Positions 1,906-2,930 of a stretch of DNA of 19,799 bases are shown piece after piece. Made by a program: the position numbers and the translations under genes. The notes beneath the pieces are model-generated. The model was not told the origin of the DNA, made no database searches, and worked only from the letters and a program-made list of their open reading frames with translations. The first letter of the stretch is position 1. The number at the start of each line of letters is the position of its first letter. The DNA comes from Nitrososphaerota archaeon. Its GTDB lineage: Archaea > Thermoproteota > Nitrososphaeria_A > Caldarchaeales > Calditenuaceae. The stretch lies in contig JAVYLC010000033.1 in NCBI GenBank assembly GCA_038741355.1, positions 1 through 19,799 of the forward strand, in the 5' to 3' direction.

Positions 1906-2930
1906 TTCTCCCGATGGCCGTCAACATCTCCGGGGCGGCCTCAGCTGCTCGGAGAGGGGTGGAGGACCCCACCCCTCCACTCTGTGGTCGTCATGGATTG
2001 TCTCCGGAAACCTCATTCTCTTTCTTCTTGTCTCCAGCATCCATCCACAAACCCCTCCCAAACACCCCCATGGTGTCTGAGAAGGGCTCAGCTACTGTGG
2101 AGAGGCCCCATGCCCCCCACAGCATCCCAGACACCCCCACGGCGTCCGGGAAACATACATGGAATGGATGTGGAGAACATCATCAAGCACCGCCTATTAT
2201 CATCAGGATGTCATCTCCATCGCCTGTCTCCCTACCGCACGCCTGTCAGCCAAGCGGCCTGTCCAGGCGTGTTTCGGGAGCTTCAGCCTCAGCGGGGCCC
2301 ACCCTCACACATGCATGCCGCCACCACCAGTCAACCAACCGGCTGTCCTGGTGGTGGATGCACGGCCAGCCAAGCAGCCGCTCCGTGCATGGGGGCTGTC
2401 TACCAAGCGGCATGACTAGCCCGGGATGGCGGTCCCGGCACGCAGTGCTTCAGGCCGCACCCGTCAACCAACCGGCTGTCCGGGTGCGTGGTCAACCAAC
2501 CGGCTGTCCCAAGGCCCCAGAACCCAGCCAAACACCCTCCCCCCGCCACCCCACAGCATATAGGTAGGGGTGGTCGCCCATTTTAGGGCGAGCTCGGGGG
2601 AGTGGTACCGGTCTCTAATAGTTGTCTATACTCTCTGTCCGGGCCTTTAGCCGCGTCTTTTCTTCTGGGCGCGCGGCCTCAGCCCGGCGGTGGATGCCCA
2701 GCTCCGCGTAGGCGTGGTGGCTCCACACCCCCGCGGATGCTCCTACTGCCGGCCGAACATTCTCGCCCCCACCCCCACCTGGGCGGAGGCGTCTCGGCGG
2801 CCGACCCGCCTCACAGATCACGTCGGCCGACGGGGAGGACAGCCCCACTAGGGACCATCCAATCCAAGAAAGAGACAGGAAGAATCCATGGATATAAAGC
2901 TATAACATGGTATGGAGGGGGCTGGGGTCA
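1905..2930. ncRNA. GC- and C-rich region of about 1 kb with no credible ORF and dense hairpins. It is a candidate large structured RNA or RNA array; the strand is unresolved.
   Basis: Hairpins include:
- 1916-1920 / 1936-1940, with a loop that starts TCAAC
- 1954-1962 / 1969-1977 (9 bp, GAGGGGTGG / CCACCCCTC)
- 2170-2180 / 2206-2218 (TGGAGAACATC / GATGTcaTCTCCA)
- the five-hairpin array at 2238-2511
- 2421-2426 / 2433-2438
- TCGCCC-atttta-GGGCGA near 2590
- 2798-2805 / 2822-2829 (CGGCCGAC / GTCGGCCG)
Internal nucleotide repeats include TCCCARACACCCCCAYGG near 2056 and 2126, and CCCCACAGCAT near 2115 and 2548. Track ORFs here are Pro/Ser/Arg-rich low-complexity readings on both strands. Confidence 0.35.
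2238..2511. repeat. Family of five stem-loops with conserved 17-18 nt loops and unrelated, compensating stems. Three loops share the exact 19-mer GTCAACCAACCGGCTGTCC.
   Basis: The five hairpins are:
- A, 2238-2271: stem CACGCCTG / CAGGCGTG, loop TCAGCCAAGCGGCCTGTC
- B, 2321-2357: stem CCACCACCAG / CTGGTGGTGG, loop TCAACCAACCGGCTGTC
- C, 2358-2390: stem ATGCACGG / CCGTGCAT, loop CCAGCCAAGCAGCCGCT
- D, 2456-2488: stem CGCACCCG / CGGGTGCG, loop TCAACCAACCGGCTGTC
- E, 2489-2511: stem TGG / CCA only, same loop as B and D
The exact 19-mer occurs at 2330-2348, 2463-2481 and 2491-2509. These start positions are 2, 0 and 1 modulo 3. Confidence 0.6.

Follow-up and report, generated by a model that had tools for sequence, protein, structure and literature searches.

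The window, as we call the whole stretch of DNA analysed here (19,799 nucleotides (nt)), is the complete contig JAVYLC010000033.1 of a Caldarchaeum-like Nitrososphaerota metagenome-assembled genome (MAG; locus tags QXM16). It carries on its minus strand an open reading frame (ORF) at 1752-730, preceded by a leader of ~1 kb with a predicted folding energy of -558 kcal/mol, and within this leader lies a tandem array of hairpins. Guanine-plus-cytosine (GC) content is 0.60-0.63 in the region 1500-3000 compared to ~0.50 elsewhere in the window, and no credible coding frame spans the array. Perfect inverted repeats resolve the array into four strong hairpins (stems of 8, 10, 8 and 8 bp), one weak hairpin and one degenerate hairpin, all within 2238-2512. 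The stems of these six units are unrelated in sequence yet paired.

730-1752, minus strand: ORF of 340 amino acids, annotated in the source MAG as QXM16_06875 (335 amino acids); conserved core from ~1599 to 733.
2238-2271, minus strand: unit A; 8-bp outer stem, 2238-2245 with 2264-2271 (CACGCCUG/CAGGCGUG), and an 18-nt loop; apical part GA-CAGGCC-GCUU-GGCUG-A, with one G bulged.
2321-2357, minus strand: unit B; 10-bp outer stem, 2321-2330 with 2348-2357, within a 15-nt, 87% arm pair; apical part GA-CAGCC-GGUU-GGUUG-A.
2358-2390, minus strand: unit C, directly abutting B; 8-bp outer stem, 2358-2365 with 2383-2390; apical part AG-CGGCU-GCUU-GGCUG-G.
2393-2422, minus strand: unit F, degenerate, from sequence reading and fold; 5-bp stem (GGGCU/AGCCC); loop containing CTACCAAGCGGC, with a related apical part (…GCC-GCUU-GGU…).
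2456-2488, minus strand: unit D; 8-bp outer stem, 2456-2463 with 2481-2488; apical 17-mer as in B.
2488-2512, minus strand: unit E; weak 3-bp outer stem; apical 17-mer as in B and D; preceded by GGGCCUUGG and the first unit after the leader box described below.

An earlier description of the locus (the sequence-only reading) had reported five tandem hairpins with stems of 8, 10, 8, 8 and 3 bp, carrying three identical loops and two variants; we recovered the inverted repeats at the same positions and the loops as written, along with a separate hairpin at 1916-1940 (GGCCG/CGGCC, with a loop opening TCAAC). The 17-mer TCAACCAACCGGCTGTC occurs in three exact copies, at 2331, 2464 and 2492, compared to a chance expectation of 0.04, and none of 200 shuffles reached three matches. 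Elsewhere in the window we found neither this 17-mer, with up to three mismatches allowed, nor its complement. The longer 19-mer starts at 2330, 2463 and 2491, that is at 2, 0 and 1 modulo 3, and so does not reflect a repeated peptide, as had been argued; a coding repeat was rejected on the same ground of three different frames.

The sequence-only reading had placed the hairpins on the plus strand and treated the 17-18 nt between the stems as a single-stranded loop that might act as guide or decoy. Neither part was supported by the analysis. The minus strand folds much better (-187.4 kcal/mol, z -5.3) than the plus strand (-145.7 kcal/mol, z -2.7), an advantage that holds at 75 °C and at 85 °C. 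When read from the minus strand, the 17-nt "loop" GACAGCCGGUUGGUUGA folds further into a 5-bp helix, CAGCC/GGUUG, which includes one A-U and one G·U pair and is capped by a GGUU tetraloop; this inner helix persists in the variant loops, where G·U has become G-C and A-U has become G·U. We aligned 16 units from the window and four other loci as outer stem, 2 nt, 5-bp helix, 3-4-nt loop, 1 nt and outer stem. Paired cells made up 95.2% of this alignment, compared to 62.4% in shuffles (0 of 500 reached the observed value) and 24-43% in slid controls, with the proviso that the units were selected as hairpin-forming, which inflates the outer-stem statistics and affects the inner helix and the strand asymmetry less. 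Changes on both sides were seen in 11 of 13 pairs, the inner helix included (C-G to G-C; U-A, G·U, U·G and G-C). All 26 non-Watson-Crick cells are G·U when read on the minus (gene) strand, with no A·C. The pair closing the outer stem is G-C in 12 of the 16 units and G·U in three, and the internal loop between the two helices measures 2x1 nt. Because the inner helix covaries between loci and the strand asymmetry is made up of G·U pairs only, the hairpin array is structured as RNA of the minus strand, with a small helix rather than an open 17-nt loop as its apical part. The feature is real and stands on solid statistics. The earlier idea of RNA modules with free stems and a conserved apical part was thus upheld, on the opposite strand. 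Rfam gave no match to these hairpins at the gathering threshold or at E up to 1, and no tRNAs were found.

Related loci carry arrays built in the same way. A scan of a genome collection yielded 63 Caldarchaeales loci, up to 18 of them from one MAG (PSS.bin.6) and many at contig ends, to which the copy in Ca. Caldarchaeum subterraneum (L001) was added separately. In L001, L006, L020, L021, L024 and L044, arrays of like build occupy the gene strand at 450-1000 nt upstream of the gene. Across five other Caldarchaeales genomes there are 1-8 hairpins per locus, with an apical sequence that is specific to the locus and an inner helix that covaries between loci.

L001: ~8 units, apical sequence UUGCCCGUGUGC.
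L024: 6 units, apical sequence GGUGCCAUGCGCC.
L020 and L021: 5 units, apical sequence CCGUGCUACGCAUGA.
L006: 3 units, apical sequence GACAGCCGCGUGGUUGA.
L044: 1 unit, apical sequence related to that of the window (GACAGCC…GGUUGA).

A covariance model of the unit, searched against both strands of 67 sources (492 kb), returned 18 matches. Seventeen of these fall in arrays upstream of family genes and all are on the gene strand, including L044 and unit A of the window, which was outside the training set of the model (R1) and was still found (26.1 bits, E 0.002). Unit D was the top match (36.5 bits), and unit F was not recovered by R1. Within the sequence searched, the array sits exclusively upstream of this gene family. 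An unbiased clustering of shared-loop hairpins over all loci was too noisy to use.

The arrays are preceded by a conserved leader, GGGGUGGCGGGGG…UUGGCUGG, and most of the 12 leader-bearing loci that were aligned show a recognisable first unit of the form GGGCCUUGG-GA-hairpin-AC, the inner helix of which covaries; unit E is clearly conserved in the window, L006, L005, L013, L051 and L019. That this first unit is recognisable in most leader-bearing loci suggests that the arrays may have arisen by amplification of an ancestral first leader unit, the counterpart of unit E. Units D and E have orthologues in L006 with the same outer stems. Between the paralogous arrays of L020 and L021, arm differences are single-sided transitions that yield G·U pairs, and for this reason the arms, judged by comparison of the aligned sequences, behave as structural stems. 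Two of the loci also hold copies of a CRISPR repeat, CTGTCAATGAAAAGAGGATGGAAAG: L020 has a CRISPR array of 17 copies at 158-1258, ~2 kb upstream of the family gene, and L037 has three copies at 2810-2975, in the opposite orientation, between the zinc-ribbon block and the gene.

We also searched for dispersed copies, in the window, the 492 kb of loci, and metagenome and viral contigs. The metagenome query was the 19-mer with either a GGTT or a GCGT tetraloop allowed; it returned 33 single matches, about the number estimated for chance, none with flanking arms. The 17-mer had no match in viral contigs. As copies in the window occur only in the array, covariance-model matches lie upstream of family genes, metagenome matches are single and armless, and viral matches are absent, a dispersed repeat of the repetitive extragenic palindrome (REP) type or like a miniature inverted-repeat transposable element (MITE) was rejected, in agreement with the sequence-only reading. 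Neither the arm sequences nor their tandem duplications occur as targets in the window, and a search of viral contigs with tandem arm B gave more than 120 low-complexity sites and was uninformative. Other candidate identities were also rejected: a CRISPR array (no repeat-spacer periodicity), a replication origin (the region is GC-rich and has no Orc gene) and a kink-turn or L7Ae site (bulge and GA in the wrong order).

The ORF product is invisible to sequence searches: we obtained no match in Pfam (E up to 10), in NCBIfam, in a phmmer search of the PDB or in a PDB profile search built with 38 family members, nor did ten distant family members match Pfam. Homologues number 71 in a set of 5.8 billion proteins and 180, many of them fragments, among 1.84 billion cluster representatives; those with names come mostly from Caldarchaeum and its relatives. 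At least nine paralogues are present in the source MAG, with ~50-79% protein identity to the query, and viral contigs contained no relatives of the protein. An AlphaFold model built with the 38 family members (predicted local distance difference test (pLDDT) 89.6; predicted template modelling score (pTM) 0.83) shows an RNase H/RuvC-like domain, a long helical hairpin forming a coiled coil and a helical C-terminal domain. Full-length Foldseek comparison to the PDB matched this model to TIGR-TasR (9mty; E 1.7e-7, template modelling (TM) score 0.65, 316 aligned columns, probability 1.00) and to the IS110 recombinases ISCro4 (9t56) and IS621 (8wt6/8wt9) (E 1e-6 to 3e-5, TM 0.59-0.64, probability 1.00). 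TasH matches, likewise of probability 1.00, were weaker, and beyond TasR, IS110 and TasH there were no others below E 0.001.

Judged by this predicted model, the ORF product is a deeply divergent member of the TasR / IS110-recombinase / Nop5 fold class. Its C-terminal domain has no conserved Ser nucleophile, and no Ser is invariant in the alignment: within a flexible loop at 230-246, 21 sequences have S at position S243 and 11 have N. The candidate Tyr of the C-terminal loop, Y242, was rejected as a nucleophile, being Phe in seven of 38 sequences. Because neither a Ser nor a Tyr nucleophile is conserved in the C-terminal domain, the alignment indicates that the protein is not an IS110-type serine recombinase. 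The earlier description of the neighbouring protein as IS110-like was therefore borne out for the fold, which Foldseek recovers, and failed for the sequence, which has no Pfam match and no conserved Ser nucleophile. By alignment position, the invariant or nearly invariant residues are D12, D35, D54, D59, E71, D105 and E122, and likewise R83 and R84, which stand where the beta-4 Glu is expected.

We favour, with a probability of roughly 55%, a reading in which dimers of the encoded protein dock on cognate modules arrayed along the minus-strand leader RNA. A module would consist of an outer stem of 7-11 bp with free sequence, a conserved closing G-C pair, a 2x1 internal loop and a locus-specific 5-bp apical helix capped by 3-4 nt, and each module would offer a docking site to one dimer. 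Recognition would run through the closing G-C pair, the 2x1 loop and the apical helix, much as TasR and IS110 recombinases use their C-terminal domains to hold tigRNA and bridge RNA at the helix/box C-D junctions. Nothing would keep the outer stems from drifting, and selection may favour differences that prevent mispairing between neighbours, while the array as a whole would have grown by amplification of one ancestral leader hairpin (unit E). Since the units have no variable single-stranded segments and their arms evolve like stems, we lean towards a spacer-less array of handles for loading, scaffolding or autoregulation, rather than a set of different DNA guides.

Several observations weigh against the docking array. 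The apical sequence changes in concert within a locus (GGUU in window units B, D and E versus GCGU in all three L006 units), and a simple binding-site model does not predict such concerted, locus-specific change. Many family members have neither leader nor array: L008, L014, L033 and L098 are solo genes, and L101, L035, L047 and L048 are leaderless, with a small divergent zinc-ribbon gene alone ~100 nt upstream. The RNA therefore cannot be an obligatory cofactor in cis. The likeness of the protein to TasR and IS110 is at the level of the fold only, the outer-stem statistics are inflated as described above, and we infer, rather than observe, transcription, protein binding and any processing into unit-length RNAs; what the analysis shows is the structure at the RNA level, its strand, the link to the gene and the fold of the protein.

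The array is one part of a larger conserved unit, the remaining features of which are the following.

582-598, minus strand: 3' box, CCAGCCAAACCUUCCCC, followed by a T-rich tract.
1600-2237, minus strand: remainder of the leader, GC-rich and structured, with hairpins at 2053-2151, 1786-1845 and 1622-1756.
2524-2552, minus strand: leader box, GGGGUGGCGGGGGGAGGGUGUUUGGCUGG, which starts the conserved leader; its 3' half is an inverted copy of the 582-598 box.
2546-2591, minus strand: two conserved hairpins, just upstream of and overlapping the leader box, read from the alignment.
2931-3354, plus strand: divergent small gene encoding a C-terminal CxxC…CxxC zinc ribbon, in a block conserved in at least nine loci.

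The leader box (…GGGGGAGGGUGUUUGGCUGG) and the 3' box CCAGCCAAACCUUCCCC are inverted copies ~1.95 kb apart. This 17-nt inverted-repeat pair brackets the leader and the ORF and covaries between loci: the boxes read GUGGUUGG/CCAACCAC in L020 and L024, and GAGAGU appears in both boxes of L005. The pair could represent long-range pairing between the 5' and 3' ends of an RNA, or terminal inverted repeats. The inner helix of the window units (GGUUG/CAGCC) mimics the core of the leader-box/3'-box pairing. Of the two hairpins at 2546-2591, the first (UCGCCC…GGGCGA) covaries between loci, and the second (CCACCCC…GGGGUGG) has an A/T-rich loop, UAUAUG, which could be a candidate TATA box with a promoter role, to judge from its letters.

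Between the array and the protein core, the hairpins of the leader have features of their own. At 2053-2151 (minus strand), three adjacent hairpins display C(A/G)UGGGG loops on unrelated stems, with the loop motifs CGUGGGG, GCAUGGGG and CCAUGGGGG; the three orthologous loops in L005 (3562-3662) all read CAUGGAG, which is again a concerted change of loops within a locus, and GCAUGGUG loops in L001 and L020 are related to those of the window. The hairpin at 1786-1845 (minus strand) has a 17-bp stem and ~75% identity in L015, L024, L028 and L029. At 1622-1756 (minus strand), three perfect GC-rich hairpins of 9-11 bp overlap the first ~55 codons of the annotated ORF. As the conserved protein core begins only at about codon 50, this stretch may be leader RNA instead of protein-coding, or may serve in both ways, for which some stem-loop TIGR units reported from within tas genes set a precedent.

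The divergent small gene on the other side of the array is degraded in the window, where its frame shifts between 2931 and 2968 and is interrupted by an in-frame stop at 3073; its copy in L005 is intact, and it has no Pfam match. At the unit's opposite end, homology with paralogous loci stops sharply at window position ~567-570. The family element lies no more than 570 nt from the contig end, and many family loci are cut a few hundred nt from the gene, a position that fits assembly breaks at a repeated unit. Just past the 3' end of the unit, ~100 nt of the window (457-559) share 78% identity with L034 (2673-2777), where they stand upstream of an unrelated family copy and may form a further repeated element.

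The known systems closest to this arrangement are arrays of tandem interspaced guide RNAs (TIGR). TIGR dual-repeat arrays are composed of edge, spacer A, loop and spacer B, with 9-nt spacers, a box C of CCA and a box D of UG (PMC12045711), whereas in TIGR stem-loop arrays variable palindromic stems replace the edge repeats around two 8-12-nt spacers (Faure et al. 2025, PMC12045711). Some stem-loop TIGR units have a hairpin between the spacers, of 5 bp in CsTasR, and the box-D G pairs with the box-C C (bioRxiv 10.64898/2026.09.09.750476). The only known non-viral hosts with TIGR arrays are candidate phyla radiation (CPR) bacteria (Xu et al. 2026, bioRxiv 10.64898/2026.09.09.750476). The statement in the sequence-only reading that no such architecture had been described is therefore superseded by the stem-loop arrays, with variable palindromic stems beside a Nop-fold Tas gene, that were published in 2025 (PMC12045711), although the window array still differs in defining features.

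Its likenesses to TIGR-Tas are several: tandem hairpins adjoin a gene whose product combines RuvC, coiled-coil and Nop-like C-terminal domains (a predicted fold in the window); the palindromic stems are unrelated in sequence within one array; the apical element is conserved within a locus, different between loci and can be a 5-bp stem, with a G-C pair at the junction; some of the hairpins may extend into the coding sequence at its 5' end; and TaTasR, the best structural match, is from a Thermoproteota archaeon. In contrast, the window units have no pair of variable 8-12-nt spacers, and the 17-18 nt between their arms are constant and folded as a 5-bp helix. The arms, the only variable parts, are fully complementary, whereas known spacers do not covary. 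CCA or CUU and UG boxes are not consistently present: UG…CUU appears in several L024 units, and the window has GA…A-CUG. No sequence relationship of the protein is detectable, the host is a free-living member of the Caldarchaeales with many divergent chromosomal paralogues rather than a phage or CPR bacterium, and the array sits inside a structured leader of ~1 kb.

The other comparisons are looser. IS110 elements (IS621, ISCro4) share the protein fold, an upstream same-strand non-coding RNA with a stem, internal loop and apical stem-loop, and a multi-copy distribution. They differ in that the window protein has no match to Pfam DEDD_Tnp_IS110 or Transposase_20 and no conserved serine nucleophile, that family copies are old and divergent, and that there are 1-8 modules in place of the two, with large guide-bearing loops, in bridge RNA; the 2x1-nt loops leave no room for target and donor guides. 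Archaeal box C/D small RNAs (bound by Nop5 and L7Ae) share the protein fold superfamily and are short, hairpin-like and sometimes clustered, whereas the window units have no RUGAUGA/CUGA kink-turn geometry, no 3-nt bulge followed by GA on the 5' strand, no guide segments and no Rfam match. The sponge RNAs CsrB and RsmZ and the operators of phage coat proteins also place one short motif on many unrelated stems for multivalent binding of one protein; this is an analogy only, as these systems belong to bacteria or viruses, involve unrelated proteins and present the motif in single-stranded form. The literature searches that touched on this question gave no paper linking Caldarchaeales with TasR or IS110. 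Together, the comparisons indicate that the array looks like a guide-RNA array without guide segments; we found no description of such a variant, and we do not file it as a member of TIGR or IS110.

Other explanations of the array have to be weighed against docking modules. If it were a true guide array, the complementary 8-10-nt arms would be the counterparts of spacers A and B, paired until the protein opens them and then addressing both strands of a DNA target. The arms are indeed placed as spacers A and B relative to the 5-bp apical stem and the G-C "box" pair, their length of 7-11 nt matches the 8-12 nt of TIGR spacers, they vary between units while the remainder is constant, and the L024 apical element is flanked by UG…CUU like the box D/box C of PateTasR. 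We nevertheless find this unlikely: in known TIGR units, spacers A and B show no covariation and are directed at neighbouring segments without overlap, whereas complementary arms specify either a bare site of 8-10 bp, too short for specificity, or its tandem duplication. No such arm or tandem-arm site exists in the window, the viral tandem scan gave low-complexity noise only, a basal stem and second box pair are absent, and the arms are conserved between the window and L006 and drift through G·U in L020/L021, as structural stems do. Another proposal is a structured 5' leader acting in cis alone, for mRNA stability or translation control at high temperature, with no specific link to the protein. 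Hairpins upstream of an ORF on the same strand, in a leader predicted to be heavily structured and GC-enriched over its whole 1 kb, are what it calls for; it leaves unexplained why identical 17-19-mers stand on unrelated stems and change in concert within a locus, and why the arrangement is met again only next to this fold class, in which every known member works with adjacent hairpin RNAs. We consider it unlikely.

The hairpins might instead act as DNA, as operators or single-stranded DNA hairpins at a transposon end, bound by the transposase or repressor of an insertion-sequence-like element. Such an element would account for the multi-copy gene family (at least nine paralogues in the source MAG; 18 of the 63 loci from PSS.bin.6), the many loci at contig ends, the sharp end of homology at ~567-570 and the covarying 17-nt inverted-repeat pair around leader and ORF. 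Mismatches that are all G·U on one strand (26 to 0) are, in turn, not expected of a double-stranded DNA site, paralogues within a genome are ~50-79% identical to the query where an active insertion sequence would have near-identical copies, conservation reaches beyond the inverted-repeat pair, and no Ser or Tyr nucleophile is conserved; the DNA-level explanation is accordingly a poor candidate. There is still less to recommend the plus-strand RNA of the sequence-only reading, with a 17-18-nt single-stranded loop as decoy or guide, which we regard as very improbable. Perfect stems do form on either strand, and the CCA-N6-UG of the plus-strand loop recalls the TaTasR boxes C and D. Folding is much poorer on the plus strand, however, wobbles become A·C mismatches there, the arrays of L020, L024 and L001 do not show CCA…UG, and no complementary target was found in the window, in viral contigs or, beyond the chance-level single matches without arms, in metagenome contigs.

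The docking array thus remains our preferred reading. A broader proposal, which we put forward as speculative and unlikely as matters stand, is that the locus represents an unrecognised archaeal branch of the TasR / IS110 / Nop5 class. Its hairpin might then be a "closed" tigRNA-like form, whose paired guide arms are opened by the protein to read both DNA strands, or else the spacer-less hairpin might be the ancestral handle that was elaborated into tigRNAs, bridge RNAs and box C/D RNAs.

It was only in 2024-2025 that TIGR-Tas, IS110 bridge recombinases and box C/D ribonucleoproteins were linked as one RNA-guided class, the origin and natural roles of which are still being worked out; reports of TIGR arrays from cellular genomes mostly concern CPR bacteria. 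The locus described here adds a family that is confined to hot-spring Caldarchaeales, has the same predicted fold and escapes sequence searches, and whose adjacent RNA is built on the frame of a stem-loop tigRNA (a variable stem, a G-C junction and a 5-bp apical stem) without the spacers. The TasR / IS110 / Nop5 class is thereby extended, on the evidence of the predicted fold, to a chromosomal Caldarchaeales family with a spacer-less stem-loop array. If the protein binds the hairpins, the family would show a protein-RNA handle without guide segments, a testable candidate for an ancestral or regulatory form of these systems, and would supply compact, thermostable protein-RNA pairs with locus-specific recognition.

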